IMG/VR virus record: IMGVR_UViG_2852300590_000011
Direction: 5' to 3' (one strand)
Length of the DNA stretch: 28,830 nucleotides
From: an uncultured virus (IMG/VR IMGVR_UViG_2852300590_000011)
Taxonomy: Duplodnaviria > Heunggongvirae > Uroviricota > Caudoviricetes
In this document: one piece after another, positions 1 to 27,107 of the stretch
Position numbering within the stretch: position 1 is the stretch's first letter
How the letters are laid out: each line of letters begins with the position of its first letter
The notes under the pieces: model-generated
What the model saw: only the letters and a program-made list of their open reading frames with translations
Database searches by the model: none
What the model was told of the DNA's origin: nothing
Translations under genes and position numbers: made by a program

Positions 1-1
1 G

Positions 2-505: not shown

Positions 506-534
506 GACGTCTTTTTTCTTCATTTTATCCTGAT

Positions 535-553
535 GCCCTGATGGGCTTTTTTT
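535..553 (+). terminator. Rho-independent terminator after the capsid gene
   Basis: GCCC-TGAT-GGGC followed by T7. Confidence 0.6.
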
Positions 554-593
554 ATATCTAAAATCCGGTGCTTCGGCATCGGAAGGAGTTTTT

Positions 594-944: not shown

Positions 945-954
945 GGCAACATAG

Positions 955-1227: not shown

Positions 1228-1236
1228 GTGGGTGAT

Positions 1237-1800: not shown

Positions 1801-2195
1801 TCAAACATACACAGATCCGACATGCAATTAAAGAGGCGATTGAGCCTCATGCCAATGGGGTGACAGTCTTTGATGGTCGCCCTTTTTTTGTGGATGAAAA
1901 CGACTTTCCAGCCATTGCGGTGTACATCACCGATGCTATTTCAACAGGTGAAAATCTCGATGAAGATAGTTGGCAAGCAATTGTTCACATAGAAGTTTTT
2001 CTCAGTTCGAATAACCCTGATGCTGAGTTAGATAAATGGGTTGAAGCCGTGATTTATCCTGCGCTGACCTCCATTCCCGCACTGTCCGAGCTTATCGAGA
2101 ATATGACCCCTAACGGCTACGACTACCATCGTGATGAAGAAATGGGGTTGTGGGGGTCGGTCGATCTCCATTATCAAATTAATTATTCAATGTAA
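1797..2195 (+). CDS. Minor tail (tail terminator) protein U
   Basis: KHTQIR.A..., FDGRP.F.DE.DFPA.AVY.TDA, GYDY.RD.E.G.W.S.DL.Y.I.Y.M as in gpU; GTGA overlap with Z. Confidence 0.9.
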
Positions 2196-2206
2196 AAGGA
2201 ATCATT

Positions 2207-2728
2207 ATGCCTACACCAAACCCATTGGCACCCGTAAAGGGTGCTGGTACCACGCTTTGGATTTATAGCGGTACCGAAGACCCATTAAAAGATCCGTTTA
2301 CTGATACGGATTGGACACGACTGGCGAAAATTAAAGAACTACAGCCGGGTGAAATTACCGCAGACAGTTATGACGATACCTATCTTGATGACGAAGATGC
2401 GGACTGGAAAGCCACTGCTCAGGGGGAAAAATCAGCGGGTGAGGCCAACATCACGCTGGCATGGAAACCGGGTGAACAAGGTCAAAAAGATCTGGTTGAT
2501 TGGTTCCAACTAGGGGATGTTCGTCACTACCGCATTCGTTACCCCAATGGGGCCGTCGATATTTATCGAGGTTGGGTTAGTTCGCTTGGAAAAACGGTAC
2601 CTGCGAAAGAAGTGATCACCCGTACCATTAAGATCACCAACAGTGGCCGTCCTGCGCTTGCAGAAGAAATTAAATCAGCGTCAGAGCAAGGAAAAAGTGC
2701 GCCCGTTATTAAAAAAGATAATGAATAA
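2207..2728 (+). CDS. Major tail tube protein V (short form without the C-terminal Ig-like domain)
   Basis: [47 protein letters not shown] match gpV; only 173 aa. Confidence 0.92.
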
Positions 2729-2739
2729 AAGGTAACAAC

Positions 2740-3129
2740 ATGTTTTTAAAGAAAAAAGAGTTTACTTACAGCGGTGAGTCTATTGCGTTATATGAATTAT
2801 CAGCATTACAGCGTATTGAATACTTTGATTTTTTAGTCGAGCAAGCAGAAAAAAACGACGATATTGAAAAAGTGGAAGGTGTTAAAAAAACCGCCCTGAT
2901 TATTCGTGTAAACACAGAATCTAACGCTTGGCTAGTATCTCGTTCATTAGCCCACGGTGGATCGAATGATGTTGAAAAAATTTACAATGATGTTCTTTCT
3001 ACATGGAATCCTGAAGCACTCGCTCTTGCAGCTAAAGAAGTGCTGGTGATTAGCGGGATGGCACAAACTGAAAACACGGAAAATGAAAATATTCACAGTG
3101 ATGCACAGGAAGAGTCATTGGAAAAGTAG
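2740..3129 (+). CDS. Tail assembly chaperone G
   Basis: MFLK...F.Y.G.S..L.ELSALQRIEY as in gpG; ends at the slippery sequence GGAAAAG. Confidence 0.9.
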   Translation: MFLKKKEFTYSGESIALYELSALQRIEYFDFLVEQAEKNDDIEKVEGVKKTALIIRVNTESNAWLVSRSLAHGGSNDVEKIYNDVLSTWNPEALALAAKEVLVISGMAQTENTENENIHSDAQEESLEK

Positions 3130-3470
3130 TTGCCCGTGAACATCAATTTATTCTGCGCCTATCACATGAATTTAAACGTGCTGATTGGCGCAGAATGCTC
3201 AGTGAGATGACAGCGACCGAGCTCGCTGATTGGTTACACTTCTTTAATGAAACTCCCTTCACCATTCAATTTATCGATCATGCTTTTTCTGGTCTTAATT
3301 TCACGGTTGCCAGTGTTTTTGGTGGTGGTAAAGACTTATCACCAGAGGATTTTAGTGTGTTGTTACGTAAACCTGCTGTTGATATGGACGATGAAATCAT
3401 GATGGCGGTAAGTGAAGGGATAGCGGGCGGAATACGATATGAGCCAACAAATAGCGGATCTAACGATTAA
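3120..3470 (+). CDS. Tail assembly chaperone T frame, expressed as a G-T fusion by -1 frameshift
   Basis: The -1 frame is open from 3120: GKVVAREHQFILRLSHEFKRADWRRMLSEMTATELADW, resembling lambda gpT. Confidence 0.85.
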   Translation, partial: GKVVAREHQFILRLSHEFKRADWRRMLSEMTATELADWLHFFNETPFTIQFIDHAFSGLNFTVASVFGGGKDLSPEDFSVLLRKPAVDMDDEIMMAVSEGIAGGIRYEPTNSGSND

Positions 3471-6454: not shown

Positions 6455-6784
6455 ATGGAAACATTTAAGTGGAAAGTTAAACCTGATATGAAAAAGGAGT
6501 TTGAGCCTCGAGTAAAATCAGTGAAATTTGGCGACGGCTATGAACAGCGTCGCCCTGACGATATTAATAATAATCTAAAAAAATACAATGTAACGCTGAT
6601 CTATATAAATAGTGAAAGCTTGCAGATTGAATTATTTTTAGAAAAACATGCTGGTGTTACCACATTTTTATGGAAGCCACCTCATCAATCAGAATTAATT
6701 CAGGTACTATGTCGAAAATGGTCGTCTTCAGTAGGGATGATTAGAACTGAAATAACGGCTGAATTCGAACAAGTTGTTTATTAG
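6455..6784 (+). CDS. Minor tail protein M (distal tail)
   Basis: METFKWKVKPDM, VKFGDGYEQRRP, FLWKPP, AEFEQVV as in gpM. Confidence 0.92.
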   Translation: METFKWKVKPDMKKEFEPRVKSVKFGDGYEQRRPDDINNNLKKYNVTLIYINSESLQIELFLEKHAGVTTFLWKPPHQSELIQVLCRKWSSSVGMIRTEITAEFEQVVY

Positions 6785-6801
6785 GTGACAAATAAGGAAT
6801 A

Positions 6802-7284
6802 ATGGTGAAAAATATAATACTAACAGTTTTGTTATTTACTTCATTTAGTGTAATTGGTAGTGAAAATATATCGTTAGGAAAATGGATCATAACTAAAGAA
6901 GAGAATAAATTAACTGATAAAATAGATTATTTTGCAATATTACCACCCGAAAGTGGTGGTGGGGCTTTAGTATTAAGATGTGTTGATAATAAAACTGATG
7001 CGTTCCTTGCGACAGATGATTTTATAAGTTTGGATGATTATAGCAAAGTTACTATCAGAATTGATGGGCAGAAAGCATATACCGAAAGATGGGAAATAGG
7101 GGGGGATAATGATACTTTATTTCCTTTAAGCCCGATACAGTTTATAAAAAAAATAAATAATAGTAATAAATTAATTATTGGTTATAAGCCATATAATAGA
7201 ACTCAAACTGTAAGCGAATTTAAAATTGATCATATAGATGAAGTTTCAAAATCAGTATCAAAATACTGTGGCTGGAAACTATAA
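6802..7284 (+). CDS. Exported hypothetical protein (moron between M and L)
   Basis: AT-rich, AAGGA RBS, N-terminal signal peptide (IILTVLLFTSFSVIG), two Cys, own terminator; interrupts the conserved M-L order. Confidence 0.75.
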   Translation: MVKNIILTVLLFTSFSVIGSENISLGKWIITKEENKLTDKIDYFAILPPESGGGALVLRCVDNKTDAFLATDDFISLDDYSKVTIRIDGQKAYTERWEIGGDNDTLFPLSPIQFIKKINNSNKLIIGYKPYNRTQTVSEFKIDHIDEVSKSVSKYCGWKL

Positions 7285-7330
7285 AAATCATATTAATTTT
7301 ATTATTTTAAATATTTACAGAAATTATAAT

Positions 7331-7356
7331 AAGCCACCTTTTTTAGGTGGTTTTTT
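7331..7356 (+). terminator. Rho-independent terminator after the moron
   Basis: AAGCCACCT-TTTTT-AGGTGGTTT followed by further T residues. Confidence 0.7.
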
Positions 7357-7368
7357 ATTGGAGCTAAT

Positions 7369-8073
7369 ATGCAACATATTCCTCCTGAAATGCGAATTAG
7401 TGTTACCGAACTCTCCTCAACTGATGCTTTGCTTGAGCTTTACGAATTTGATTTAACCAAAATAGGCGGTATTCGGTACCGCTTTTTTGATGGACTCAAT
7501 CAGCGTAAAGAGCCGTTAATCTGGCAAGGAAACACCTATGAACCTTACCCCGTGAAAGGTGAAGGCTTTTCTTTTAATGGCAAAGGCCCCTCAGGGCGAC
7601 CCACTATTACATTGTCGAATTTATTTGGATTGATTACAGGGATTGCCAGTCAATTAGATAGTGCAATCAGTGGGCTGGTGGTACGACGCATTGTCAGCAC
7701 TCAATTTTTAGATGCAGTAAATTTTCCTCAAGGCAATCCTAACGCCGATCCGTCACAAGAAATTGTGACACGTTGGATCATTGAGCAGATGACCAGTTTA
7801 AATTCAGTAACAGCTACCTTTATGTTAGCCACACCGAGTGAGACTGACGGATTAATGCTGCCTGGGCGTGCTATTTTGTCTGATATCTGTAATTTTTGTT
7901 ATCGCTCAGAAGAGTGTGGTTACAAAGGCCCCCCTGTTGCTGACGAATGGGGAAAGCCAACCACTGATCCACTAAAAGACAAATGTGGCAAACGTCTTAG
8001 TGACTGTAAGTTACGAAAAAACGAATCACGTATAGGCGCGTTTGTTTCCACTTCCCGTATTGGTAATAATTAA
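7369..8073 (+). CDS. Minor tail protein L
   Basis: WQG..YEPYP..G.GF..NGKG...RP, C...YRSEECGY.GP.VADE, DKC.K.LS.CK.R Fe-S cysteines as in gpL. Confidence 0.93.
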   Translation: MQHIPPEMRISVTELSSTDALLELYEFDLTKIGGIRYRFFDGLNQRKEPLIWQGNTYEPYPVKGEGFSFNGKGPSGRPTITLSNLFGLITGIASQLDSAISGLVVRRIVSTQFLDAVNFPQGNPNADPSQEIVTRWIIEQMTSLNSVTATFMLATPSETDGLMLPGRAILSDICNFCYRSEECGYKGPPVADEWGKPTTDPLKDKCGKRLSDCKLRKNESRIGAFVSTSRIGNN

Positions 8074-8094
8074 CTCCCTCCTAAGGTGTTTCTT

Positions 8095-8823
8095 ATGATA
8101 GAGCAAGCAATTTTGGCGCATGCGAAAGAGCAAGCGCCATCGGAGGCGTGTGGCTTATTGGTAAGTACCGCACAGGGTGAACAGTATTTACCTTGTGTTA
8201 ATCAGCACACTGATCCGAAAAACTATTTCACGATTTCTTTTGATGATTTTATTCGAGCCGAACAGCAGGGCGAGGTGATAGCCGTTGTACACAGTCACCC
8301 TGATGGTCAGCCTTATCTCAGCACCTTAGATCGACAACTGCAGGTGAACAGTGCGTTGCCGTGGTGGGTGGTCTGTGATGAAAAAATTCACTGCTATCAA
8401 CCGGTATCTCATCTCTTAGGTCGCCAATTTATTCATGGCTCAACAGATTGTTATGGGTTGCTTCGTGATGCTTATCATTTGGTAGGACATGATCTGCCTG
8501 ATTTTGAGCGACATGATAATTGGTGGCGTCAAGGTAAAGAACTGTACCTCGATAATATGATAAGCAGTGGTTTTCGGCAGGTAAAAAAAGAAGCGCAACC
8601 CGGCGATATTATTTTGTGTTGCTATGCCAGCTCTCGTGCCAACCACGCGGGGATTTATTTAGGCAATCAAACGATTTTACATCACATTCCAAACCAACTT
8701 AGCAAACGCGAGGAGTATAACGAACGATGGCAACGAATGACGCACTCAATTTGGTGTTACCGCGATTGGCAACCTTCCGACTTTACGGGGATTTGCAACG
8801 ATTTGGACGTCGCTTTGATTTAA
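8095..8823 (+). CDS. Tail assembly protein K (JAB/MPN + NlpC/P60)
   Basis: EACG, VHSHP...LS..D JAB motif; TDCY, ANHAGIYLG...LHH NlpC motif. Confidence 0.93.
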   Translation: MIEQAILAHAKEQAPSEACGLLVSTAQGEQYLPCVNQHTDPKNYFTISFDDFIRAEQQGEVIAVVHSHPDGQPYLSTLDRQLQVNSALPWWVVCDEKIHCYQPVSHLLGRQFIHGSTDCYGLLRDAYHLVGHDLPDFERHDNWWRQGKELYLDNMISSGFRQVKKEAQPGDIILCCYASSRANHAGIYLGNQTILHHIPNQLSKREEYNERWQRMTHSIWCYRDWQPSDFTGICNDLDVALI

Positions 8824-9377
8824 ATGTGAATACTGCTTCTGAAGGTCTTCACGCGCTTTTTATTCAACTTCCAGCATTACGCTTAGCTATTCGTGATGGT
8901 TGGTATCAAGTGCGCATTGCGGGTACTGATATTTCCCCACAAGACATTAACCAAAGATTCAATGAAACCTTACCTGATAATGCAGTAGTTCATATTGTGC
9001 CGAAATTATCAGGGGCTAAAAATGTCGGTATTTTTCAATTTATTGCAGGTGCTGCTTTATTTTCATTGGGATGGTGGGGGCCAGCGTGGATCTCCGCAAC
9101 AGTAGCGACTTCTTTGATGGCGGGCGGTGCAGCTATGATGATTGGTGGTGTCGCTCAAATGCTGATCCCGTCTCCAAAACCTCCCAATCTATCTCGTGAT
9201 GATGAAGAAAAAGGCAATACTTATTTTAGCAATCTTGATAATGCCGTTGCACAAGGAATGTCGGTGCCCATTGCCTACGGCGAAATTATGTGTGGTTCAC
9301 GCGTCATTTCACAATCTGTTGAAATTATGGATGACAGTGACGGTGAAAATATCGATGCCGGCAAACACGGTGGTTAA
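8727..9377 (+). CDS. Tail assembly protein I
   Basis: LYGDLQRFGRR, GWYQVRIAG, NTYFS.LDN.VAQG..VP..YGE...GSRVISQ as in gpI. Confidence 0.92.
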   Translation: MATNDALNLVLPRLATFRLYGDLQRFGRRFDLNVNTASEGLHALFIQLPALRLAIRDGWYQVRIAGTDISPQDINQRFNETLPDNAVVHIVPKLSGAKNVGIFQFIAGAALFSLGWWGPAWISATVATSLMAGGAAMMIGGVAQMLIPSPKPPNLSRDDEEKGNTYFSNLDNAVAQGMSVPIAYGEIMCGSRVISQSVEIMDDSDGENIDAGKHGG

Positions 9378-9391
9378 GAGGAGTTCGTATC

Positions 9392-12300
9392 ATGGGTAAA
9401 GGTGGTGGCGGTCAAAGAACACCGTATGAGGCACCAAACGATTTAACATCACGTCAAAAAGCGTCATTAATTGATTTAATCAGTGAGGGGCCGATTGAAG
9501 GCCCTATTCATATTCAAGGCTCGATGGATGATTTAGGGTGCATTTATTTGGATGATACGCCGGTGATAGATGGATCTGGCAATAGCACCATTAATGGAAT
9601 GTATGCACAATGGCGGGCGGGTACCTTAGAGCAACCGGCAATGAGAGGTTTTACCGCGTCTGCGAATGAAGTTCCAGTGGGGATTGAGGTTAAATATAAT
9701 TCCCCTGTCACTCGCACTATCACCTCGCCCAATATTGACCGCTTACGCCTAACCTTTGGTACGCAAGCACTGGTTGAAACTAAAGATAATGGTGATCGCG
9801 TACCTACATCTGTTCAATTACAGATCCAAATCCAGCGCAATGGGGTATGGATAACAGAGAAAAAAGTCACGATTAAGGGTAAACGCTCTAACTCTCCGTA
9901 CTTGATGGCGGTTATTTTGGATGATTTGCCCCCAGCTCCGTTCAGTGTGCGTATGATCCGTATTACTCAAGACAGCACTTCTGACAAAATTCAAAATAAT
10001 ACCGTTTGGTCGAGTTATTCTGAGTTAGTGGATATTTCACAAACCTATCCGGGTTCTGCTGTTGCAGGATTAATGTTTGATAGTGAGCAGTTTGGCAATA
10101 AATTTCCGCGCCGTAATTATTTAATTAAAGGGTGTATTATTCAGGTGCCGAGTAATTATGATCCAGATAAACGAATTTATTCTGGGATTTGGGACGGTAC
10201 ATTTAAACCGGCATTTACCAATAATCCAGCATGGGTATTATGGGATTTGTTAACTCATCCTCGTTATGGCATGGGGAAACGCCTCAATATTAGTGAGGTT
10301 GATAAATTCGCCTTATATGCGATAGGACGTTATTGTGACGAACAGGTTGATGATGGTTTTGGAGGAAAAGAGCCACGTATAACCTGTAATGCTTACATTA
10401 CGGATATGCGTAAAGCCTATGATGTGATGGCAGATATGTGTGCCATGATGCGCATTATGCCAGTCTGGAACGGACGAACATTAACCTTTATTCAAGACAG
10501 ACCGTCTGATGTAGTATGGCCTTATACTAATGCCAACGTAATTGATGGCAACTTCCAATACAGCTTTAGCGCATTAAAATCGCGTCACACTGCCGTCGAA
10601 GTTCGTTTTATTGATCCAAACAATGGTTGGAAAACCAGTGTTGAGCTAGTTGAAGATGATGCTAGCATAGCGCGCTTTGGACGCAATGTGATGCGCGTCG
10701 ATGCATTTGGTTGTACTAGCAGAGGTCAGGCTCATCGTCATGGTCTTTGGTTGTTAACTACTGAGAAATTAGAAACTCAAACGGTTGAATTTAATATCGG
10801 TAGTGAGGGGCTACGTCATATGCCGGGTGATATTATCGAAATTGCTGATAATTATTACGCGGATAATCAAATTGGTGGACGTCTAACACATATTGATTAT
10901 GCCTCTCAAACATTAACCTTAGATCGAAATATCGACACACCCAAAAGTGGTAAATCAAGCGTCACACTCATCAATGCTCAAGGTGATCCGCAATCTTATG
11001 AAGTGGCGAGCTATCCCGCATCTAATCAAATAAAGCTGGATACTTTGCCGTTAGGGTTACAAGAAGGCGGAATTTGGACATTAACACTTCCGTCTTTACG
11101 TCGGCGATTATTTCGTGCCATCAGCTTGGCTGATAACGGAGATGGCAGCTTTACGGTTATTGCAGTGCAACACACGCCCGAAAAAGAGGCTGTTGTTGAT
11201 AAAGGGGCTAAATTTGAGCCAAAACCTGATACGCCACTAGGTGGATTTATTCCACCGGTTGAAAACCTTTCTGTGGATATCGAATCAGATACAAGTGAAT
11301 GGCAAGTAGAAGCCAGTTGGAATACACCTTATTCCAGTCGAGGGGTAGATTTTTTATTAAAACTAACCACTGGTGATCGCATTGTCGGCACCGCCTCAAC
11401 CACGGATACGATATATCGTTTTGGTGGTTTGCCTCAGGGGAATTATGTTTTATCCATCCTGCCTCAAAATGATCGGAAACAAAAAGGCGAGGTGGCCACA
11501 ACTTCATTTGCGATTAATCCACCATTACCACCCAGTTATATTGAGGTTGAGTCGGGCTATTTTAGTTTAGGGATTATTCCGCGATCTGGTGGTCAAAATA
11601 GCTTACGAGCACAGTATGAGTTTTGGTTTTCAGAAAAACAGATCACGGATATTCGTGATGTGGAAAATCGTGCTGAGTATTTAGGTATTAGCTCTATGTG
11701 GGTTATACAAGGACGTAACCTAAAGGCAGGACATACCTATTATATTTATGTTCGTAGTATAAACGCTGTAGGGCATTCAGAATTTGTGGAAGGAATAGGG
11801 CAACCAGAAAGTCACACTAGCGAAATACTAGATAATTTAGATAAAGAATTACAGGAAACGCAAGCATGGCAGAAGCTTAATGAAAAAGTTGAATGGAATG
11901 AAAATACAATAAAAAGGGTAGGTTATAATGAATATAATTTATCTCGAAAGTTTGAAAAATACAGTAAACAGACAGAGGAAACGATTAATGAGATCCGAAC
12001 ACAGATAGAAAATACGGAAGCTGATATTATTACTCAAAAGGAAGCAATTTCTTCTATCAAACAAGCTCAATCAAGTTATCAACAACAAGTCCAAGCTAAA
12101 ATTAATCAGCAGTCAGGTATTCTCAATCAAAAGATGAATGCACAATTTACACAATCAGGAGGATATGCTCGGCATTCAATAAATATTACTATCGTCCATA
12201 ATGGAATTAGATATAATGCAGCTGGTTTTATTGTTAGTGCCGAAATAAAAAATAAACTCTTATATTGGATTTAATGCCAATAACTTTGCATTTTATAATC

Positions 12301-13874: not shown

Positions 13875-15230
13875 ATGATATACACAACAGGCACTGTTAG
13901 CACAGTGTCAGGGTCTGCTATTGTCTCTGGCACAGGTACCAAATGGACAGTTAATAATCCCGCTATTCGCTCAGGCACCATTATTTTAATTAAAAATGGT
14001 AATGCTAATTCTATTTACATGGTGGATAGAGTTAATAGCGATACAGAATTAGTCATTTCACAGCCGGCTACATTTACCGTAAAAAACACCAGTTACAGTA
14101 TTAATCTCACTGAGCCGAACTCATACAGCGACGCTAATAATCGTATGACCGCTATTGCATCAGATACGATGTATTTTCTGCTAGCAATGGATCAATGGAT
14201 GATGAATAACGGTGTGGTGACAGTAGAGCTATCTAACGGGCAAAAAGTAACGCTCGATAGCATTAAGAAGATGCAGGGGGATATTAACAACAAGGCTGAT
14301 GCTAAAGTTATTGAACAGATGTAGGGAGATATTGCCAATAAGTTAGATACTAAGAAAGGAGGTATTCAACGAGTTGAAGGTGAATTGCGTTTAAGTACTG
14401 CTATTGGTGCTGTCAATCAAGATGAGAGCAATGCCGCGTGGATATCGTTAGTTCGTGGACATCCTGATATTTATATCAAAAGAGAGGGGAAAGCGAACGC
14501 GCTGTTCAGCTTTCCTAGTTCAGCAGGAGGGGAATTTTTATCTAACAAAACGCTTGAGATATTGGAAAGTAAATCAGATTTCTATGGTAATGGATTTATG
14601 CCGTTAGAAATATAGATTCACAGGCAATGAGTACCATATTCATGGGTACAAATTGCGACCATCCAAGCGCTGGATATTCGTTTGCGATATTAGGTCGTGC
14701 AAATAAAGCATTTTTCACAACAAGAGAGAAAGGGCAGTGTATGAACTATAGAATTCATCAAATGCTCGCCTTGATACAAATGGCTTTATCAAAAAAGCCT
14801 CTCCAATCATCGACATCAACCCCGACGGTACATTCACTACTAACGATGAATCAGAAGGTGCGATTGTTACTCGAGTAGCTCAGGGTGAATACCTTATTGA
14901 AGGCGTGCTGGGTTTTAACTCAGATGCAGGTTGGGGGGGGATGGCGGTATTGAAATCCCACTCGATGTAAATAAACAACCACTGATATGGGTTAACTCTA
15001 AAGTTAACAAAGATGGCTCTATTCTCGTTAAAACGTATCACCGAATTCACTCTAATGCGCTAGAGTTTGCCCGTAATGATATTGATGGTTTCAATGACGG
15101 TGACTCAATTGATATCCCTAACGGTCGTTTTATTTCCGTGCGTGTACAGATGCCAGAAGGCTCAATCTATAACGTGAGAATGCGTGAGATGGAAGAAGCG
15201 CAGAAAGTGGAAGAGGAGATGAAAGAGTAG
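13875..15230 (+). pseudogene. Side tail fibre protein, multiply disrupted
   Basis: MIYTTGTVST.SGSAIVSGTGTKW start. The TAG at 14322 sits in ATGTAGGGAGATATT, which repeats ATGCAGGGGGATATT at 14271 (CAG>TAG). Further breaks lie at about 14610-14750 and at the G8 run 14933-14940. The C-terminal motif D.NGFIKKASPII.I..DG.F.TNDESEGA is present. Confidence 0.85.
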
Positions 15231-15369
15231 TACGGTTAAGGTGAGAACGTTATATTGCTGTAATAATTAATGATATTAGTTTATATGTGAGGCTGTACTG
15301 TTATGTCATGCTATATTAATCGATGGAGTGATAAAAAGATTTCTAAATTATTCAAAAAGGCATTACATA

Positions 15370-16314
15370 ATGAAAATGATTTTTAATCTAGATGGCTCAA
15401 AAATACGGCTCTCATCTTTACAGTATAAAAGTAAATTGAAGCAGATCGAGATAATGCGCAACTGGTTTTTCGATAACTATGAGGATCCTGCAGATTCTTG
15501 CCCTCATGAAAGCCGTGAGGGTGGATATTATTATGTTTATGGTGGCCCATATGATGCAAGTGAAGAACTAGAAGCGGTATTTGGGGAACATGTAAAGTTT
15601 GAGTATATCCAAGAATTAGTAGATGAGTTACAAGAGATATGTTGGGATTGGTCTGGCCGGCCAGATAATATTGATGATTGGTATGATGAAGATTTGTACA
15701 ACGCGGTAATATCTTCTAAGCATCCTTTCAGTAAGTTTCTTGATAATATTGAGAAAATAAAAATTCTAGCAGAGAGCAAGCATACTAATACTCAAAAAGA
15801 ACATCTACTTGGTATTTTATTTACCAACGTTATTACAGCCTTAGAAACACTTTATGTTGAACTATTTATCAACTCTATAGAGAAAGATGATTCTTATATT
15901 TCTAATTGCATAGAAAAAGGGAAAACTGAATTTAAAGTAAGCAAAGAAATTGCTGCTTTGCCATTCAAAGGAGAATCTATTGGAAAAATAAGAGAGGAAC
16001 TAATAAAAGCAATAAAAGAGCATTTAATTAGTACAAGTTGGCATAATACAAACATAGTTGTTAAACGATATAAGGCAACGTTTGGTATTAATATCCAGAG
16101 AGATTGGCCAATAGAGAATATTGAAATAGCAACGATAACACGTAACCATTTAGTACATCGTGGCGGTAAGGATAAAGATGGTAACCTGGTAGAGGTTACG
16201 AAGCAAAATTTAGATAATTTGATAAACGATGCTGTATCAATAGGTGAAAAATTAAACGATAGCCTCAAAGATGCATTGCAAAAGAAAACTAGCCTAACCG
16301 AATACGAATTTTGA
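15370..16314 (+). CDS. HEPN-domain protein (putative RNase, abortive infection/defence)
   Basis: Helical C-terminal domain with ITALE...(helix) and the RxxxxH motif RNHLVH (16141-16158); acidic/aromatic N-terminal domain; AAAAGG RBS; extended -10 TGcTATATT at 15309-15317. Confidence 0.7.
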   Translation: MKMIFNLDGSKIRLSSLQYKSKLKQIEIMRNWFFDNYEDPADSCPHESREGGYYYVYGGPYDASEELEAVFGEHVKFEYIQELVDELQEICWDWSGRPDNIDDWYDEDLYNAVISSKHPFSKFLDNIEKIKILAESKHTNTQKEHLLGILFTNVITALETLYVELFINSIEKDDSYISNCIEKGKTEFKVSKEIAALPFKGESIGKIREELIKAIKEHLISTSWHNTNIVVKRYKATFGINIQRDWPIENIEIATITRNHLVHRGGKDKDGNLVEVTKQNLDNLINDAVSIGEKLNDSLKDALQKKTSLTEYEF

Positions 16315-16614: not shown

Positions 16615-17398
16615 AACCCTTTGTCCGCGGGCAAAAAAATGACAGTAATGATGCACAGGCTATCGCAATTGCTCTGATGCAGCCAACAATGCAGTTCGTC
16701 CCCCCCCAAAAGCCCTGAACAGCAGGATATTCAGGCTATGCACCGTGCAAGACAGCGTATTATTAATCACCGCACTGCGACAGTCTGTCAAATCCGGGGA
16801 CTGCTGCTTGATCGGGGAATAACAATCGGCGCTGCAGTCTCAAGAGTTCGTCGTGCTGTTCCGCTTATCCTTGAAGATGCTGAAAATGGTCTTAGCGTTA
16901 GAATGCGCAGGACGATTACAGAATTTTATGATCTCTTTAATGATCTTGGTCGTCGAATAAGCTTTTTTGATAAAGAAATTGATGCTGTGTTCAGGTAATC
17001 AGAAGACTGCCAGCGCATTGCCAAAGTTAAAGGCATTGACCCTAAAACAGCAACAGCTGTTGTTGCCGCGATTGGCAAAGGAACTGAATTTAAAAATGGT
17101 CGTCATTTTGCCGCATGGCTTGGTCTGGTTCCACGACAGCACTCAAGTGGCGACAGGCAGGTACTGATGAATATGACGAAAAAAGGCGACAAGCATTTGC
17201 GGATACTTTTTATTCATGGTACCAGCTCTGTCGTCAGGGTTACCGCGAATAACAAGGATGGCGAAGCATCAGTGGGTAAACCAGTTAAAGGAGCGGAGCG
17301 GGTTTAATAAAACGACCGTAGCGGTGGCTAACAAGAACGCGAGAACAATCTGGTTGATGCTGAGAAATTATACCGAGTATCAGGCAGTTGGAAGTTAG
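16615..17398 (+). pseudogene. IS110-family (IS1111 group) transposase, 5'-truncated and inactivated
   Basis: PFVRGQKNDSNDAQAI (end of the DEDD domain), HRARQR...QIRGLL, F.NGRHFAAWLGLVPRQHSSG, VAVANKNAR. Frameshift in the C8 run 16700-16707, stop at 16996-16998, frameshift near 17262. Confidence 0.9.
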
Positions 17399-17580
17399 TA
17401 TCCAGTCAGACGAATTGCAGTGTACTGAAAAATGGTGGCAGTTTGCACTAGCACAATCGGAATCTGACTATTGTATTGGCCTCCGAGGCCGTCCAGTTGT
17501 TGAGGCGATTGTGTGCGGATTACCCATTTGGGCACAGGTTTTCCTGATGCCGGATTGAGGTAAGCAACGACCCAAAACGG
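17399..17580 (+). ncRNA. Putative seekRNA/bridge-RNA region downstream of the IS1111-group transposase
   Basis: IS1111-group elements carry their guide RNA downstream of tnp. Stem GCACAATCG (17451-17459) / CGATTGTGT (17506-17514) encloses an internal loop and the hairpin GGCCT-CCG-AGGCC (17478-17490). Confidence 0.55.
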
Positions 17581-17594
17581 AGGTAATTCATAGA

Positions 17595-17776
17595 TATAAT
17601 AAGTCGCACTGCTAATATCATTTTACCGACAAATATCATCGACTTTCATACCTGAATCGGCGAGTTTTAAGATGTTGACGATTTGAGTTTCAGTAAAACG
17701 GGCTTTTTTCATAACGATCACTGTAATTTTTAGGACAGAAAATCTAATTATAGCTGTCTCATTTTAGGGAGTGACA
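17595..17776 (-). mobile_element. IS3-family (IS407-group-like) relic: left end plus start of orfA
   Basis: Minus strand begins TGTCACTCCCTAAAATGAGACAG; ATG at 17712 reads MKKARFTETQIVNILKLADSGMKVDDICR*NDISSATYY. Confidence 0.8.
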
Positions 17777-17849: not shown

Positions 17850-17858
17850 TGTTATAAT
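17850..17858 (+). promoter_or_regulatory. Extended -10 promoter element for the TM/radical SAM operon
   Basis: TGtTATAAT matches TGnTATAAT exactly, about 64 nt upstream of ATG 17922; GAGGGG RBS at 17911-17916. Confidence 0.55.
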
Positions 17859-17921
17859 GCGCTGCAATGAGAATCAAGTTCTAGTTACAATTTTAAATTT
17901 ATTACCTCATGAGGGGAAACA

Positions 17922-18650
17922 ATGATAAGTGCTAGTTCAAGAGAGCGCTGGAATACTAAAACGATAATAATTATAAGTCTTTTGGTATCAATAGTTTTGA
18001 TTGTAATTTCGTTTTTTTATCCAAATGATTATAATGATTGGAAGAATATTCAGATTAGTGTGGCTTGTTCAATTTTAGCAAGTAACATTATCATGTTTTT
18101 AACCTCCGAATATATGCTGAGAAGTAAAAGACGTACAGAAATAATTGATCGTTGGGGGGTTGAATCTATATACAAAACTAGGGCTGAAATGAATGTTTCC
18201 ACAAATGTTTCGCTATCACAGTGTAAAAAAAATATTGAAATTATAGCATTCGGTTTGAAATCATTTCGGGAGACAAAAACGGTAGAAATAGAAAATCTAT
18301 TAACTAATGGAGTTAGTATAAAAATACTAACCTTAACTCCTAATTCTAAAATTTTAAATTTAGTTGATCAAAGAGAAAATTTAATTGAGGGTTCAACAAA
18401 AAAATCAATTGAAGATTTGATAAGTTGGGTTTCAAGTTTACAATTAAAGTCAAAAAAGTTTAATTTGGAAATTAGACATTATGATTCTATTCCGTTGGAT
18501 TTCTATTTTAAAGTTGATGATAGAATCTATGTTGGTCCATATTTAAAAGGAATGTCAAGCCAGCAAACAATATCATATGAGTTTTCTCTAGGTGAAGGTT
18601 ATATATACTGGTCGAGCTATTTTTCAAAAATATGGAATGATTGTAAATGA
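17922..18650 (+). CDS. Membrane protein: two N-terminal TM helices plus PLD-like (DUF5919-like) cytoplasmic domain
   Basis: Hydrophobic segments aa 15-33 and about 43-61. Then IEIIAFGL...G.SIKIL.L.P.S...LEIRHYDSIP....FKVDD.IYVGPY...YF.KIW pattern of non-HKD PLD-fold domains. Confidence 0.65.
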   Translation: MISASSRERWNTKTIIIISLLVSIVLIVISFFYPNDYNDWKNIQISVACSILASNIIMFLTSEYMLRSKRRTEIIDRWGVESIYKTRAEMNVSTNVSLSQCKKNIEIIAFGLKSFRETKTVEIENLLTNGVSIKILTLTPNSKILNLVDQRENLIEGSTKKSIEDLISWVSSLQLKSKKFNLEIRHYDSIPLDFYFKVDDRIYVGPYLKGMSSQQTISYEFSLGEGYIYWSSYFSKIWNDCK

Positions 18651-19534
18651 TTAGAAAACCTGACTACGAAAGAGGGCGTTTTTTTATTAGTCCTATTTTG
18701 GGTTGTAATGCGCAGTGTTATTTTTGTTACATTTATAATAAGGGATATAAAACCAAAGCTGTAAAAAATGGGTTTGATATCTCTCAAGTTTTACAATATT
18801 TATACTCTCATTCTAATTTTAAATTAGGAAAGAATGGGTCAATTATTTCAATAGGTGCTTGGGGGGACCCATTTCCAAGGTATAATAAGAAGCTATGCTT
18901 GTATAGTCTACATTGGTTAAAAAAGCTGTCATCCCTAGGTAATCCAATTCAAATAATGAGTAGGTACGAGTTACATTCAGAGATTCTTGATGAGATTGTT
19001 AAAGCTAACAAATATGCTGGCCATATATTATATTCTACATCTATAAGCTCAATTAAAAATTTTAGAAGCATTGAGCCTTACTCTGACTCCCCTCAAAACA
19101 GACTTAAAAGTCTTAAATTACTAAAACGTTCAGGTATTGCGACTAATGTAATGGTTAAGCCTTTTATACTTGGCATAACTAACTTGGAATCAATTGAAAT
19201 TGCAACTGCTTTAAAAGAATATGAAGTTGAACAGTGTGTGGTAGGTGAGCTATTATTGGATAATAGAATAAAAAAAGAATTTTCAACTATTGGGTTGCCG
19301 ATTATTATAAAAAATGAAGAAAGTCAAATTCTTGATTGCACTTCGGGAGAAAATTATGAGCTCAGTACTTCGATAGAGTTCATTGTTTTTTCTAAAACTC
19401 TATCTGATTTAGGTATCAAAGTTTTTAGGAAATCCAGCTGTGTTAATTCCTATATTTTAAATACTCCAAATCCAGCCAATTATATGCAGTCAGACCCAAA
19501 TCACTATTGTATAAAATGCGGGGTATGTAAATAA
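18647..19534 (+). CDS. Radical SAM enzyme, spore photoproduct lyase (SplB/COG1533)-like
   Basis: ISPILGCNAQCYFCY (CxxxCxxC), GDPFP, IEP....P..RL, VKPFILGIT; extra C-terminal SSC...CIKCGVC; ATGA overlap with the upstream gene. Confidence 0.85.
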   Translation: MIRKPDYERGRFFISPILGCNAQCYFCYIYNKGYKTKAVKNGFDISQVLQYLYSHSNFKLGKNGSIISIGAWGDPFPRYNKKLCLYSLHWLKKLSSLGNPIQIMSRYELHSEILDEIVKANKYAGHILYSTSISSIKNFRSIEPYSDSPQNRLKSLKLLKRSGIATNVMVKPFILGITNLESIEIATALKEYEVEQCVVGELLLDNRIKKEFSTIGLPIIIKNEESQILDCTSGENYELSTSIEFIVFSKTLSDLGIKVFRKSSCVNSYILNTPNPANYMQSDPNHYCIKCGVCK

Positions 19535-19789: not shown

Positions 19790-20542
19790 ATGATAATAAT
19801 TAATACCATTAAAAATAAATTAGAAGGATCTGTTAATCATTCTAACCCTTTTATTGGCTTTGATGAGTCAGGGATGGAATATTTTGTAAAAACATATTCA
19901 AACGAATCTAAGTATGAATCAAAGGCATTATTTAATGAATTTTTAGCCTTTAATCTTGCTGAAAAGATAGGTTTATTTTGGCCAAAAGGCCATATTGCTC
20001 AGCTTTCTGAAAATGTAAAGAGTGATCTAAATATATCAACTTCATTTGTTATTGCATATGAGTTCATATATGGTTTAGAAGAATTACCTGAGGATCATCA
20101 ATTCAGTAATGATCAACTGAGTGCTCTTTATGGGAAATCAATATTTGATAATTGGCTATCAATACGTGATGCGAAAAATGATACTTGCAAGTTGTCAAAT
20201 AATGAATTGCTGTTTATGGATGCTGGAATTGCCCTTGAAAGTGATAGTCAAGATATATGGGGTGAAGATGGTCTTATCTGGAACCCAAGTAAATTAGATT
20301 CTGAGACAGCGCCATATCTTCATGAAAAATTGAGCTCTGGAGAAGGATATAAACTATGGATGGATAGAATTTGTGACATACCTGCTGATTATTATGAATC
20401 TCTTGTAAATAGTATCCCTCAAGATTGGGAAATTCCTGTAAGTTACAAGTCAAAATTTGTCGAGACTTTTTCTTCATCGTGCCATATTTTTATTCCTATG
20501 ATGATTGAATATATCAAGTATGGTTTGAATCCCAAGTTATAA
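19790..20542 (+). CDS. HipA-like kinase (no partner gene visible)
   Basis: GS...SNP loop, YFVK, LFNE.LA..LA..IGL..P, FDNWL..RD, LLFMDAG. Confidence 0.75.
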   Translation: MIIINTIKNKLEGSVNHSNPFIGFDESGMEYFVKTYSNESKYESKALFNEFLAFNLAEKIGLFWPKGHIAQLSENVKSDLNISTSFVIAYEFIYGLEELPEDHQFSNDQLSALYGKSIFDNWLSIRDAKNDTCKLSNNELLFMDAGIALESDSQDIWGEDGLIWNPSKLDSETAPYLHEKLSSGEGYKLWMDRICDIPADYYESLVNSIPQDWEIPVSYKSKFVETFSSSCHIFIPMMIEYIKYGLNPKL

Positions 20543-21114: not shown

Positions 21115-22032
21115 ATGTCATTCTACAAATATATGACAACGGAAACGGGTAAGATAGTAATTGAACAAGGCACACTTCGATGGTCAAGTCCAAGTATTTT
21201 TAATGATATCGATGAGTGTCAATTTTCACCTTTCACTGATAGCGAGCTTGAATCAGCGAATAATGCTGTGTTTAAAGTTTTAGCTAATTGTGTCGCGGGT
21301 CATCTAATATATAATTTTAATGAATTTTCTGATGATAAACAGATGATGATAGAGCTTTTAAAGTATGGTATTGAAAATGGTATCGCGAGTGATAATAGTT
21401 ATTTTGATTCATTTAAAAAAATTGTTCCTAGTATGGAAGATTTTTTTCGAGAGTATATAAACATAGGACTTATTAATTGCGCTCGTGTTCTGTGTGTGAC
21501 CTCGGACTATGATAATAATCTAATGTGGGCCCATTATGCGGATGAGCATCGAGGTTGTGTACTTGAATTTGAAAATGTATATAAAGAGGCTCCAGATAGA
21601 CTTCATCAAGGACCTGTAAAGTATGTAGATGAACTTAAAAGTTCTACAAACGCAATTGAGTTACTATTATATGGAGAAACTAAATCTATTCACAATACTC
21701 TTATTAAAGATGTTTTCTTTTCAAAAAAATCCGCATGGCAATATGAAAAAGAATATAGATTATTATTTAGTGAAAATTTTGGTGTAATTCAAGGTAGCAT
21801 TAACTGTCAAACAAATGAAAAAACATGGGCTGTCAGTGGGCAATCCGATCAATTATATACTGATGTAGAGTTTGCTCCAGATTCATTACTTTCAATTACT
21901 TTTGGAGTTAGAACTCAGGCTGCTATAGTTGATGAAATTATATCTATTGCACGTAGTAAGAACCCTCTATGCACGTTCTATCAGATGATAAGATCTGGAG
22001 GATCTACAGTACGTCATCGCATGCAAATTTAG
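21115..22032 (+). CDS. DUF2971-domain protein
   Basis: FYKY, S.P..FND..E, N.LMWAHYAD.HRG..LEF, K...W.YEKEYR, I.FG motifs; GGAGG RBS. Confidence 0.8.
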   Translation: MSFYKYMTTETGKIVIEQGTLRWSSPSIFNDIDECQFSPFTDSELESANNAVFKVLANCVAGHLIYNFNEFSDDKQMMIELLKYGIENGIASDNSYFDSFKKIVPSMEDFFREYINIGLINCARVLCVTSDYDNNLMWAHYADEHRGCVLEFENVYKEAPDRLHQGPVKYVDELKSSTNAIELLLYGETKSIHNTLIKDVFFSKKSAWQYEKEYRLLFSENFGVIQGSINCQTNEKTWAVSGQSDQLYTDVEFAPDSLLSITFGVRTQAAIVDEIISIARSKNPLCTFYQMIRSGGSTVRHRMQI

Positions 22033-22470: not shown

Positions 22471-22807
22471 TTAAACAGCAATAATTTGCCATTCTTTGCC
22501 TCTATCGTCGTGATATTTATCGGTCATTTTTTGGGTTTTATGGCCTAATAATTTTTGTGTATTTATTCCTTGTTCGCGATAAAGTCTCTCAGACAAAGAG
22601 CGTTGTTCGTGAAAGGTTGGTGCAGTACCTTTGTCCCAAGTTAACCCACACTTATCTCGCGCTTTTTTAAACGTTGTGGTTAATGTATTTGGTGTGACTT
22701 GTTCGCCTCGTTTTGCTTGGGATGTTGTATCCCGATAATGTACAAGATATTTACTCACAACGGCATCACGACACATTGCAATAACGTCCCTTAAGTGTAA
22801 CGCCAAT
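22471..22807 (-). pseudogene. int: Lambda-family tyrosine integrase, C-terminal fragment
   Basis: PTFHEQRSLSERLY.EQG...QKLLGHK...MTDKYHDDRG.EW (H-x-x-R, H and Y catalytic residues); points toward the icd att; upstream part lost. Confidence 0.9.
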
Positions 22808-23232
22808 CCCGAAGGCACATTCACCACTAACGACGAATCAGAAGGCGCTACAGTTACTCGAGTAGGACAGGGTGAATATCTTATCGAAGGTGTGCTCGGC
22901 TTTAACTCAGATGCAGGTTGGAGAGGTATTGATGGTGGTATTGAAATTTCACTTGATGTTAATAAACAGCCGTTGATATGGGTAGGCTCTGAAATTATGG
23001 GGGACGGTTCTATTCTCGTCAAAACGTATCATCGAACTCATCCTAACGCACCTGAGTTTGCCAATAATAAAATTGACGGTTTCAACAATGATGACCCAAT
23101 GATATTCCTGATGGTCGTTTTATTTCCGTTCGCGTACAGATGCCTGAGCAATCAATCTATAACGTGAGAATGCATGAGATGGAAGAGGTGCAGAAGGCGG
23201 AAGAGGAATGTAGACAAAAAGAAGAGGATTAA
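22805..23232 (+). pseudogene. Tail fibre C-terminal fragment, copy 2
   Basis: NPEGTFTTNDESEGATVTRV..GEYLIEGVLGFNSDAGW is homologous to 14818-15230; frameshift near 23100. Confidence 0.9.
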
Positions 23233-25056: not shown

Positions 25057-26847
25057 ATGAGTGACAATGAAGATAACGATATTCATATTGAAATAACTGA
25101 TGGCGTTAATAGCCGTGATGACGATGATAATTCGCATTACACAGATAACGACAGTGAAGATCGAGACCGAGATGAAAATGAAAGAAATGTTCAAGATATT
25201 TCTGATATTGATTTAAGTCGATACCCCGAGAAATTAGTAATGGCATCAGCGGCTATGCCAGCTTTGGGTTTTCTTACTTATAAAGGTGTTCTTAGTTTTA
25301 CATCAAGTCCATTTGCTTCCGCTAATGTTAAGAGTATCTTTTCTAAGTCATTGACAGCGTTGAGAGCTAGTGCATTAGAAGCAATTTCTATAGCGCCAAA
25401 GTTGGCTAGGGTTACAGGTGTTGGAATTGCAATCGAAGGATTGTGGCCCAGTAATAATATTATGTCTACTCAAGCTGAAATGGCTTTATTGAAGAATTAC
25501 GGCATTTTGGATCGAGATATTTTTGATAGAAACAAAGCACGCAAAGTTACAACTATGCCTGCTGATATTGTTACTAGCCAAATGGGTTCTATTGGTAAAA
25601 AAACATCTATAAACATACATACTCAAGTGATATCAGCTTTAGATAAAAATGCTAGAAAGCAACGCACCATCGTATCAACAGGTCAGGCTATTAGTGTTCC
25701 AATCGTAAAAGCGACTGCGACAAACACACCAAATATTTATACTGCTCCTGTTATAGCTGGCGCAAAGCCTGTGCGCATCAGTATTTCTGAAAATAAAGCA
25801 GATAAAAATAAGCAAGTCACCATCAATACTAAGCCTAATGCAGGGTATTATATTCCTTCACCTAAATTAAATACTCATCATGCCATTGTTGATTTTGGTG
25901 GTAAGCATGAAGCGATTTATGTCTCTATTATCGATGTTATTGATGTCGATAATGAAGAGAAGATAGTTGAAAAAGAATGGGCTGAGTGGTCGACATTGCA
26001 TCCGCTAGAAGCAGCATTATTAGAGCTTGAAGAAGCCAAGAAAAGATTAGCGAATATTGATAAACAGTATCAGGCTCAGGTTGCTGTTATTAATAAACTC
26101 AAAGCGACACCTGAAGGTTTGGCATTAGCCGATCCTGTTAAAAATCCTCTTGTTTATAAAATGGATGGTAAAGAATATAAAGATGTCAAATTTGATGATC
26201 CAGAGCTATTAAAAGCCATTTTGAACAAAGAAGAAAATTTTGCGAGTATTGTATCATTAAAATATAAAAATCAATTTAAAGGAGCTAAATTATTTGAAGT
26301 TGTAGTAATTTTAAGTTTTCTTGGTGACTCAATTTTAAAAACTCATACTCAAATTGAAGATGCTAAGAAAAAATTAGCTCCTATCCTAGAGTCACGAAAA
26401 AAAGCAGAAGAAAAGAAAAAAACTGCTGAAGATAAGGTTAAAAAAGAAAATAAACGCAATCAACCAGGTAAGGCTACAGGTAAAGGCAAAAAAGTAAGTG
26501 ATAAATGGCTTAATGATGCAGGAAAAGAAAATGGTGTACCCATTCCAGATCGAATAGCAGATAAATTGCGTGATCAAAAATTTAATAATTTCGATGAGTT
26601 TAGACGGAAATTATGGGAGGAGGTATCTAAAGATCCAGAGTTAAGTAAGAATTTTATACAAAGTAACAGAACTCGAATGCGAAATGGTTTGTCACCTAGG
26701 GCTAGATATAAAGATAGTGTTGGAGGGAGACGTTCCTTTGAGCTTCACCATGATAAACAGATTAGTCAAGGTGGAGAGGTTTATGATATAGATAATATTC
26801 GAGTCGCTACTCCGAAATGTCACATTGATATTCACAAAGGAAAATAA
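25057..26847 (+). CDS. Colicin E / S-pyocin-like nuclease bacteriocin with HNH DNase domain
   Basis: C-terminus [32 protein letters not shown]...[20 protein letters not shown]...[30 protein letters not shown] is colicin E2/E7/E9-like; pyocin-S-like middle region. Confidence 0.93.
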
Positions 26848-27107
26848 TGATGAAACTGAAAAATAGCATTAATGATTATACAGAAGCTGAATTTAAACAA
26901 TTTATTGAAGCTATAATTAATTGTGAAGGTGACGAAAAAACACAAGATGATAATTTAGAACATTTTATTAAAATCACTGAGCATCCTGAAGGTTCGGATC
27001 TGATTTATTATCCAGAAGGCAATAATGATGGGAGTGCTACTGCTATTATTAAAGAAGTTAAAGAATGGCGGGCTAAAAATGGTAAGCCTGGATTTAAAAA
27101 AGGTTAG
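26847..27107 (+). CDS. DNase colicin immunity protein (Im7/Im9 family)
   Basis: [44 protein letters not shown] coupling to the toxin gene. Confidence 0.95.

Follow-up and report, generated by a model that had tools for sequence, protein, structure and literature searches.

A radical SAM enzyme paired with a membrane-anchored phospholipase D-fold protein: a probable new defense module in prophage cargo

Introduction

CBASS, Pycsar and Thoeris place modular receptor domains on abortive-infection effectors, and the pVips provide a precedent for radical S-adenosylmethionine (rSAM) enzymes in defense. Here, we analyze a two-gene locus that combines features of both groups, located in a 28,830-nucleotide (nt) stretch of DNA from an uncultured Caudoviricetes virus (IMG/VR record IMGVR_UViG_2852300590_000011; hereafter the window). 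Gene 1 (17922..18650) is an intact open reading frame (ORF) of 242 amino acids (aa) predicted to encode a two-transmembrane (2TM) hairpin joined to a domain with a phospholipase D (PLD) fold. Gene 2 (18647..19534) is an intact ORF of 295 aa for an rSAM enzyme resembling spore photoproduct lyase (SPL) in its predicted fold. Both genes, and all of their features given below, lie on the plus strand. An original prediction, made from the sequence alone, had proposed this pair as a candidate anti-phage system. We find that the pairing is conserved within a clade and that the two genes most likely constitute one horizontally mobile operon, and we consider it probable, judging from sequence and structural models, that they form a new abortive-infection-type defense module.

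The locus resembles Pycsar and CBASS in that one enzyme and one effector make up a compact operon, the effector joins a 2TM hairpin to a soluble domain that appears non-catalytic, this soluble domain occurs elsewhere behind a TIR domain of the CAP12/Pycsar type, and nucleotide hydrolases are linked to the enzyme of gene 2. However, neither the pair nor its neighbors in the window include a cyclase or CD-NTase, the enzyme being an rSAM protein instead, and the putative sensor has a PLD fold rather than a cyclic nucleotide monophosphate (cNMP)-binding, SAVED or STING domain. Many relatives of gene 1 also have no enzyme partner at all, and no PADLOC model matches the pair. In PADLOC 2.0, gene 1 had no family match and gene 2 matched 0 families at E <= 1; 10 further PLD-like family members were likewise unmatched, matches being confined to the TIR parts of P0182, P0238 and P0167.

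With viperin and the Ophion protein OpnA, gene 2 shares an rSAM enzyme, a defense-like setting and nucleotide-processing partners, but it has no viperin or PADLOC match. Ophion, according to its preprint, pairs the rSAM enzyme OpnA with a PHP protein (OpnB) and a phosphoribosyltransferase (PRTase; OpnC) (bioRxiv 10.1101/2025.09.30.679545). Judging from that description, Ophion was ruled out as the identity of the locus, since neither the window nor the 17 genome loci described below have a PHP or PRTase domain next to the pair. HXS, in which an rSAM enzyme matures an HxS-repeat defense effector (PMC13128918), is, judging from its description, a different system. No description of the pair was found in the full-text literature, a 2015 Nucleic Acids Research survey of nucleotide-centric systems and preprint supplements being outside that scope, and the term 'DUF5919', a family name attached to relatives of gene 1, occurs in no paper of the full-text literature searched. 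INPHARED phages gave no DNA or protein match to the pair, and plasmids gave only a 24%-identical Agrobacterium gene. The statement in the original prediction that no named system has this pairing therefore held for PADLOC 2.0 and the literature searched. With newer DefenseFinder models lying outside this comparison, the pair is probably an unnamed enzyme-plus-gated-effector module of the abortive-infection type in which both enzyme and receptor are new.

Conservation of the gene pair

The stop codon of gene 1 overlaps the start codon of gene 2 in a shared ATGA at 18647-18650. At the local GC content of 30%, one stop is predicted per ~12 codons, and random runs of 242 and 295 sense codons would have probabilities of ~3e-10 and ~3e-12, respectively. 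Both are real genes, because homologues match them at E values down to 1e-40 to 1e-160. The two intact, overlapping ORFs described in the original prediction were reproduced exactly.

Relatives of gene 2 were found at 17 loci in a pattern scan that covered 185,579 species, each represented by a single genome, and in 12 of these a homologue of gene 1 lay directly upstream on the same strand. The paired loci came from Shewanella, Paraferrimonas, Idiomarinaceae, Pseudoalteromonas, an unnamed bacterium, Frankiaceae, Saprospiraceae, Oscillospiraceae (three), Acetatifactor and one uncultured bin, and they span four phyla (Pseudomonadota, Bacteroidota, Actinomycetota and Bacillota). The pair was also present in both of two IMG/VR loci, each a P2-like prophage, as well as in the nearest virus record (G001); with 77% of the window's words in common, this record is not independent. 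Adjacent locus tags for the two genes were found in Shewanella, Photobacterium and Saprospiraceae records. The conserved pairing that the original prediction had left to a check of homologue neighborhoods was therefore found, in the 12 genome loci and the 2 viral loci.

Additional components accompany the enzyme in some loci. One pair (L006) has its rSAM protein fused to a NUDIX domain (3.1e-15), and two others (L007 and L008) are directly followed by an HD-domain gene. An Armatimonadota locus (L015, 7522-10155) consists of a cyclase-NUDIX-like gene, the rSAM gene and an HD gene, without a PLD-like gene. The upstream partner in this locus overlaps the rSAM gene; its N-terminus matches Guanylate_cyc weakly (1.4e-4), and its C-terminus matches PADLOC PDC-S07 (4.5e-11) and NUDIX (0.004). 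A PLD-like identity for this partner was ruled out (hhalign probability 0.1), leaving it cyclase- and NUDIX-like instead. Seven further long rSAM forms were detected, three of 504-515 aa (two with a precomputed NUDIX match) and four of 518-542 aa (three with NUDIX). No 2TM-PLD-rSAM fusion, nor any non-NUDIX fusion, appeared in the near- and longer-length searches. Because of the NUDIX fusions, the HD neighbors and the cyclase-like partner, these associations suggest that the enzyme of gene 2 acts on a nucleotide-type substrate.

Gene 1 and its PLD fold

Gene 1 has no Pfam, NCBIfam, PADLOC or PHROG family match, and 54 homologues of it were found. An AlphaFold2 (AF2) model built from a 37-row alignment (mean predicted local distance difference test, pLDDT, 87) shows two helices (4-30 and 35-78) that form a hairpin, together with an alpha/beta domain. 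The first predicted TM helix (residues 14-33; 17961..18020) reaches a Kyte-Doolittle 19-residue mean of up to 3.05. The second (residues 43-65; 18048..18116) is weakly hydrophobic, with a hydropathy of 1.7-1.8, and has a conserved small/polar face formed by S46, S50 (invariant), A53, S54 and S62.

The soluble domain (residues 77-242; 18150..18647) is predicted, from Foldseek, from VIA-align over residues 79-242 and from conserved columns, to have a PLD fold. Its invariant or nearly invariant residues are W78, R87, E89, N91, A109, G111, L112, R116, E152, Y195, D199, G205-P-Y207 and S213. Foldseek returned 48 matches to the gene 1 model at E <= 0.001, among them TrmBL2, NucT, TrmB, PLD3, FAM83B, Nuc and Zucchini at E values of 1e-7 to 1e-4. 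In VIA-align, Z was 13.7 for PLD1, 13.3 for TrmBL2, 13.2 for the TrmB sugar-binding domain, 12.5 for the SauUSI nuclease domain, 12.3 for NucT and FAM83B, and 9.9 for Nuc, with a range down to 9.3; the top values (13.7-12.3) are effectively tied. The nearest folds thus include the TrmB sugar-binding domain together with other non-catalytic PLD folds.

No His is conserved across 37 gene 1 homologues, and the HxK(x)4D nucleophile is missing; the sole His of gene 1, H186, lies in a variable column. By inspection, Y195-x-K197-x-D199 followed by G205-P-Y207 and S213 appears to occupy the place expected for the HKD motif. Because there is no conserved His and Y195-x-K197-x-D199 seems to stand in the HKD position, the domain reads as a PLD-type pocket without a nucleophile and is predicted to be catalytically dead. 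With its PLD fold (Z 13.3-12.2) and missing HKD His, gene 1 resembles TrmB/TrmBL2, DUF5919 (PF19319) and FAM83, but what stands at its N-terminus is a 2TM hairpin, replaced by TIR in some relatives, and not a helix-turn-helix domain. Hydropathy, the AF2 model, both structural searches and the lack of a conserved His all agree with the two TM helices and HKD-less PLD-like domain of the original prediction. As to its comparison with DUF5919, gene 1 itself had no match to PF19319 at E <= 1, whereas homologues matched weakly, near the gathering score of 23.5 bits (L013 and L014, 24.9; P0131, 25.8; L007, 22.8). The nearest Atlas cluster is named DUF5919, with PF19319 in 35% of its members.

Gene 2 and its radical SAM fold

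For gene 2, 74 homologues were found. Its PF04055 match falls just under the cut-off (28.8 bits vs 29.5, E 1.7e-6), and many homologues have a precomputed PF04055 match. The AF2 model (pLDDT 92; predicted TM-score, pTM, 0.92) matched SPL best in Foldseek (4fhg, E 2.6e-9, TM 0.62), followed by pyruvate formate-lyase (PFL)-activating enzyme (second, E 1.6e-6), NifB, LipA and RlmN. The model had 85 PDB matches at E <= 0.001, and all among the matches listed are rSAM enzymes. Gene 2 is therefore assigned, on its model, to the rSAM superfamily, with a predicted partial TIM-barrel fold.

The rSAM [4Fe-4S] motif GCxxxCx[FY]CY is present as C20-x3-C24-x2-C27-Y28 (18704..18730), with C20, C24 and C27 invariant in 47 sequences. 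Five further conserved Cys (19337..19528) make up a candidate auxiliary Fe-S site: C231 and C265 are invariant, and C288, C291 and C294 are conserved in at least 90% of sequences. From this pattern, the enzyme probably carries a second Fe-S site. Both Cys motifs of the original prediction (CxxxCxxC and the C-terminal CxxCxxC) were recovered, together with C231 and C265, which it had not mentioned.

The likeness to SPL is one of fold. SplB provides the best solved-fold match and the shared GCxxxCx[FY]CY motif, but the gene 2 family profile matched SPL sequences (PDB chains) only at E 0.22, over that motif alone, and no SPL model was among the NCBIfam matches at E <= 1. No Cys is invariant or nearly so across the family between C27 and C231, the interval in which the counterpart of the SPL H-donor Cys (C140/C141, ~43 residues past the cluster) would be expected; this comparison goes by residue numbering, not by a residue-level structural alignment. 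Gene 2 further differs from SplB in its five extra conserved C-terminal Cys and its membrane-protein partner. Matches to the COG1533-type families were weak and far below the NCBIfam cut-offs (PA0069, 44.2 bits against 360; Rv2578c, 36 bits against 430), as was a match to mobile-pair protein B. Gene 2 is thus SPL-like in fold and not a member of the SPL family, although its homologues carry the JGI label 'DNA repair photolyase'. The original description of its motifs as SplB/COG1533-like is supported by the nearest fold and the weak family matches. The further statement of the original prediction, that the enzyme is SPL-like rather than viperin-like, agreed with both the fold search and the PADLOC viperin models.

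Genomic neighborhoods of the pair

We then considered the company that the pair keeps. In one of the P2-like prophages (L018), it lies between gpA and the portal/terminase genes. P2 carries old and tin in this gap, which is a known hotspot for defense genes. The same gap of L018 also holds, at 2375-6483, a trio of Metallophos, ORC/CDC6-like (STAND-like) and CARF6-like (2.4e-163) genes, possibly a separate defense system. In the other P2-like prophage (L019), the pair is located just past the integrase gene.

Among the remaining loci, a PDC-S28 gene (5e-296) or a DRT-type SLATT gene (4e-34) was found directly upstream of the pair (L016 and L005, respectively), a type IIG restriction-modification (RM) gene (9e-60) directly downstream (L017), and a GmrSD-like gene (7e-39) nearby (L008). 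Other neighbors were NACHT and HEPN genes (L006), a CbtA toxin (L001), relaxases (L007) and transposases (L004 and L005). The Armatimonadota locus has a methyltransferase and a Bpu10I endonuclease as neighbors, and in L002 and L003 the pair is a small insert between core genes. The RM, PDC, SLATT and GmrSD-like neighbors accord with the defense-island and prophage settings anticipated in the original prediction.

The wider gene 1 family

A profile search with gene 1 returned 1326 representative clusters at E <= 0.001, 153 of them at E <= 1e-30, from gut Bacillota, marine Gammaproteobacteria, Bacteroidota and Actinomycetota. When 39 length variants of the family were scanned with Pfam, DUF4062 replaced the N-terminal 2TM hairpin in six. 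One variant carried a CAP12/Pycsar TIR domain (8.8e-27; PADLOC CBASS TIR effector 1.3e-28, PycTIR 2.4e-17), one carried TIR_2 (ThsB-like), and two had a Nuc_deoxyrib_tr-like domain. A further 18 variants, 2TM-PLD-like proteins of ~460 aa (P0142, P0187, P0210 and 15 others), have an extra conserved C-terminal domain of ~210 aa with no Pfam match, which looks GAF-like by eye. Because one soluble domain thus stands behind 2TM or TIR in defense neighborhoods, we read gene 1 as a gated effector, and the fusions to CAP12/Pycsar TIR, TIR_2 and DUF4062 lend support to the original view of it as an effector with a ligand-binding domain.

Genomic contexts were examined in a metagenome sample drawn with a TIR-type query and limited to the best 80 of its 153 relatives. 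The sample is biased and redundant, consisting mostly of near-identical human-gut contigs. The 80 loci contained 66 2TM forms and 14 TIR-type forms, the latter without a conserved neighbor. Type I RM genes surrounded 46 of the 66 2TM forms, typically in the order hsdM-hsdS-[2TM-PLD]-hsdR (L038-L099; for example L071 1867-8719 and L090 1634-8694), sometimes with a KAP NTPase (PDC-S20) in the same operon gap. PrrC sits at the corresponding position within the type I RM operon of EcoprrI. Unlike PrrC, gene 1 has neither an NTPase domain nor an anticodon-nuclease domain. In the window, no RM-type family was found when 35 ORFs were compared with PHROGs and the window ORFs with Pfam, and hsd genes were absent. 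Another eight of the 66 (nine with L088) were followed by a small DUF1653 gene (L059, L066, L068, L070, L073, L081-L083 and L088), and a dGTPase-like HD gene lay near three of these loci (L073, L081 and L068; PADLOC dGTPase 4e-106 and 5e-77). The other 12 were in other or truncated contexts. AbiO/Nhi, PDC-S53 and WYL genes were also among the neighbors in the sample.

After removal of rows >90% identical, the partner groups comprised 14 rSAM, 16 RM, 7 DUF1653, 12 TIR and 8 other sequences. A quick maximum-likelihood tree built from 73 distinct rows placed the 14 rSAM-linked proteins on one side of a branch and the RM-embedded, DUF1653-linked and remaining TIR forms on the opposite side, with an SH-like approximate likelihood ratio test (SH-aLRT) value of 94, below the 95 mark. 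One long-branch TIR-type row (L029) fell among the rSAM clade; its contig ends 147 bp past the gene, with no rSAM start visible. The tree suggests that rSAM-linked gene 1 homologues are co-inherited with the rSAM gene as one clade. Five positions are specific to this clade: N95 (D elsewhere), K113 (S or R), P191 (T), F196 (W) and Y229 (variable).

The pair within the window

The first part of the window (1-12274) is a lambdoid head-and-tail module with head protease, decoration protein, tail tube, tape measure and J genes, as identified with PHROGs. Its J protein is 66% identical to J of a Providencia phage, and therefore the host probably belongs to Morganellaceae. The tape-measure gene is split between two frames (3439-5871 and 5831-6454), and the DNA behind J is a patchwork of fragments and cargo genes. 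The fragments include pieces of tail-fibre genes (13875-14324, 14931-15230 and 22892-23167), transposase genes (16738-17400) and an integrase gene (22471-23022, minus strand), as well as a 32-aa stub of an IS3-type orfA (17623-17721, minus strand). The pair is therefore a set of intact genes within the cargo of a decayed lambdoid prophage, in line with the original prediction, and its region has a GC content of 30% vs 41-45% in the upstream phage tail module. Four raw RNA runs with the same species labels contained 0, 0, 0 and 37 matching reads. All 37 reads (run X11) stop matching at 17769, the edge of the insertion sequence (IS) remnant, and then diverge from the window, so that an element boundary lies at 17769.

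Of the operon's own promoter and ribosome-binding site, as claimed originally, both sequences are present. The ribosome-binding site, GAGGGG, was read at 17911..17916, 5 nt ahead of the gene 1 ATG, and TGTTATAAT, an extended -10-like element without a recognizable -35, was read at 17850..17858. As a promoter, TGTTATAAT is a candidate by consensus match only. It is missing from the list of the consensus promoter scan because it has no -35, and such a site is not above chance in AT-rich DNA; the scan itself found 17 promoter-like sites in 2.6 kb vs 12.9 +/- 3.5 in shuffles. A terminator scan detected no terminator downstream of the pair.

Directly downstream of the pair is a HipA_2-like kinase gene (19790-20542; PF20613, 9.7e-8), no counterpart of which was found next to the pair in the 17 genome loci. 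The nearest virus record has a 250-aa ORF at this position (L020, 490-1242), the two being known to be alike by position only. Two genes downstream of the pair, a DUF2971 gene (21115-22032) matches the PADLOC candidate PDC-S31 (4e-29). Elsewhere in the cargo, a 328-aa protein is encoded at 15328-16314, with a weak match to HEPN/RES N-terminal domain 1 (1e-4) and a match to PHROG 17908 (function unknown) at 1e-144. A 596-aa colicin/pyocin-type bacteriocin is encoded at 25057-26847 (Cloacin domain, 1.2e-21; Col-Pyo DNase, 2.4e-53), and the end of its gene is overlapped by an 86-aa ORF (26847-27107) in the position of an immunity gene.

Proposed mechanism and alternative explanations

We propose that abortive infection is how the operon would shield its lysogen from other phages. 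The executioner would be gene 1, whose 2TM hairpin, with its conserved Ser-rich face, would oligomerize and breach the membrane, and the cytoplasmic PLD-fold pseudo-enzyme would hold the hairpin in check. Because a set of polar residues is kept and the catalytic His is missing, the dead PLD domain may act as a receptor for a phosphate-bearing ligand; R87, E89, N91, R116, E152, D193, Y195, D199 and S213 would suit a phosphate-binding pocket. Gene 2 would act on a nucleotide-type substrate and, on infection, make, convert or remove the ligand of the receptor, and in relatives the fused NUDIX domain or the neighboring HD hydrolase would process or clear the compound. While we are fairly confident that the pair is a defense module of this type, gating of the membrane domain by a ligand seems to us evenly balanced, and synthesis of that ligand by the rSAM enzyme is doubtful. 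Taken whole, the combination of a mobile operon, a gated membrane executioner and a nucleotide-acting rSAM enzyme is the best explanation we have, held tentatively and just short of an even chance.

Several observations weigh against this proposal, the weakest link of which is the source of the ligand. None of the 80 metagenome loci has an rSAM gene nearby (gene 2 family profile, E <= 1e-5), and the conserved polar residues R87, E89, R116, E152, D193, Y195, D199, S213 and T216 are the same in every partner group, including relatives without rSAM. Because close homologues of gene 1 with these same residues lack rSAM in all 80 loci, the receptor cannot in general depend on an rSAM product, and the original claim that the rSAM enzyme makes the signal is not supported as stated. 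Either the receptor would respond to a common cue of infection, a nucleotide or a nucleic acid, that the rSAM enzyme modulates, or the clade-specific positions would retune it. We also know of no rSAM enzyme that makes an immune second messenger. In addition, gene 1 is absent from five of the 17 rSAM loci, namely the Armatimonadota locus and four actinobacterial ones. The actinobacterial rSAM proteins are 540-597 aa long, with NUDIX detected by Pfam in two and not in the other two, and their genes neighbor PadR, MerR, galactokinase, GGDEF and amylase genes, with no defense genes among them. In two Faecousia loci (L013 and L014), which count as one event, the pair is followed by genes for a Y-family polymerase and a flavodoxin, which hint at DNA damage. 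Finally, a PADLOC-listed defense gene lies within four genes of the pair in 6 of 15 independent contexts, a count without a background control, so that the defense-gene neighborhood is suggestive.

The main rival is a guard model, which we judge unlikely but of which the original prediction had also spoken, and as a type of logic it is equally alive. In a PrrC-like manner, the 2TM-PLD effector would be silenced by physical association with a neighboring first-line enzyme, the rSAM protein here and type I RM in the gut clade; the rSAM enzyme would attack phage DNA or nucleotides, and a phage inhibitor disabling it would release the membrane effector. The embedding of 46 of the 66 2TM homologues among type I RM genes fits this model, as do polar residues that stay identical whatever the partner, an ATGA overlap suited to co-translated partners in a fixed ratio, and the rSAM-clade-specific N95, K113, P191, F196 and Y229, which could form an interface. 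However, the TIR-fused forms have no conserved neighbor to guard, and the metagenome sample behind the RM count is biased and redundant. The non-defense alternative has a small probability in our estimate. Here the pair would be a moron that serves to repair damaged DNA or nucleotides, or else in envelope or lipid chemistry, with an SPL-type lyase activity tethered at the membrane by a cardiolipin-synthase-like 2TM-PLD relic. It draws on SPL as the best fold match, the 'DNA repair photolyase' label, the polymerase and flavodoxin genes of the Faecousia loci, and the housekeeping-looking surroundings of the actinobacterial rSAM-NUDIX genes. It has to contend with the SPL sequence match of E 0.22 and the lack of a conserved Cys between C27 and C231, with the P2 hotspot and the RM and PDC neighbors, and with a PLD-like domain that is fused to TIR effectors and has no catalytic His.

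Two further alternatives assign the enzyme a different role. In a viperin-like direct action, which we find improbable, the rSAM enzyme would turn a nucleoside triphosphate into a chain-terminating or toxic nucleotide that blocks phage replication, NUDIX and HD partners would trim or detoxify it, and the membrane protein would regulate or localize the enzyme rather than kill. NUDIX fusions and HD neighbors would be expected under such a scheme, and Ophion OpnA, as described in its preprint, is an rSAM precedent in defense (bioRxiv 10.1101/2025.09.30.679545). Yet gene 2 has no similarity to PADLOC viperin models, its nearest fold is SPL, then PFL-activating enzyme, NifB and LipA, and the swap of the partner domain onto TIR effectors would be left unexplained. 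Protein maturation is the least probable of the alternatives. The rSAM enzyme would modify the membrane protein, by activase or cross-linking chemistry, and thereby arm it or keep it inactive. The tight coupling of the genes, the PFL-activating enzyme as second-best fold match (E 1.6e-6) and the five extra Cys, which by eye resemble the auxiliary-cluster extensions of peptide-modifying rSAM enzymes, are consistent with maturation, and the HXS rSAM enzyme is reported to mature a defense effector (PMC13128918). Against it, 5 of the 17 loci have the rSAM gene together with NUDIX, HD or cyclase and no gene 1, and most gene 1 relatives have no rSAM gene.

The gated-effector proposal also has a bolder form, which is rather unlikely. 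In it, the rSAM enzyme would make a nucleotide-derived immune messenger that is the first of its chemistry, and a new class of receptor, the dead PLD fold, would read it. Joined to 2TM pores and TIR NADases and placed in type I RM operons, this receptor would be a general infection sensor. Overall, the observations of the original prediction were confirmed, and its interpretation is partly supported.

Implications

If the pair protects against phages, it would contain two unprecedented parts, an SPL-like rSAM enzyme with an extra Cys-rich, possibly Fe-S, site and a PLD pseudo-enzyme acting as a receptor, and it would offer a testable case of radical chemistry in immunity outside the viperins. 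The wider gene 1 family is large and unnamed, and the ligand of its receptor, once identified, would explain many orphan genes of defense islands.

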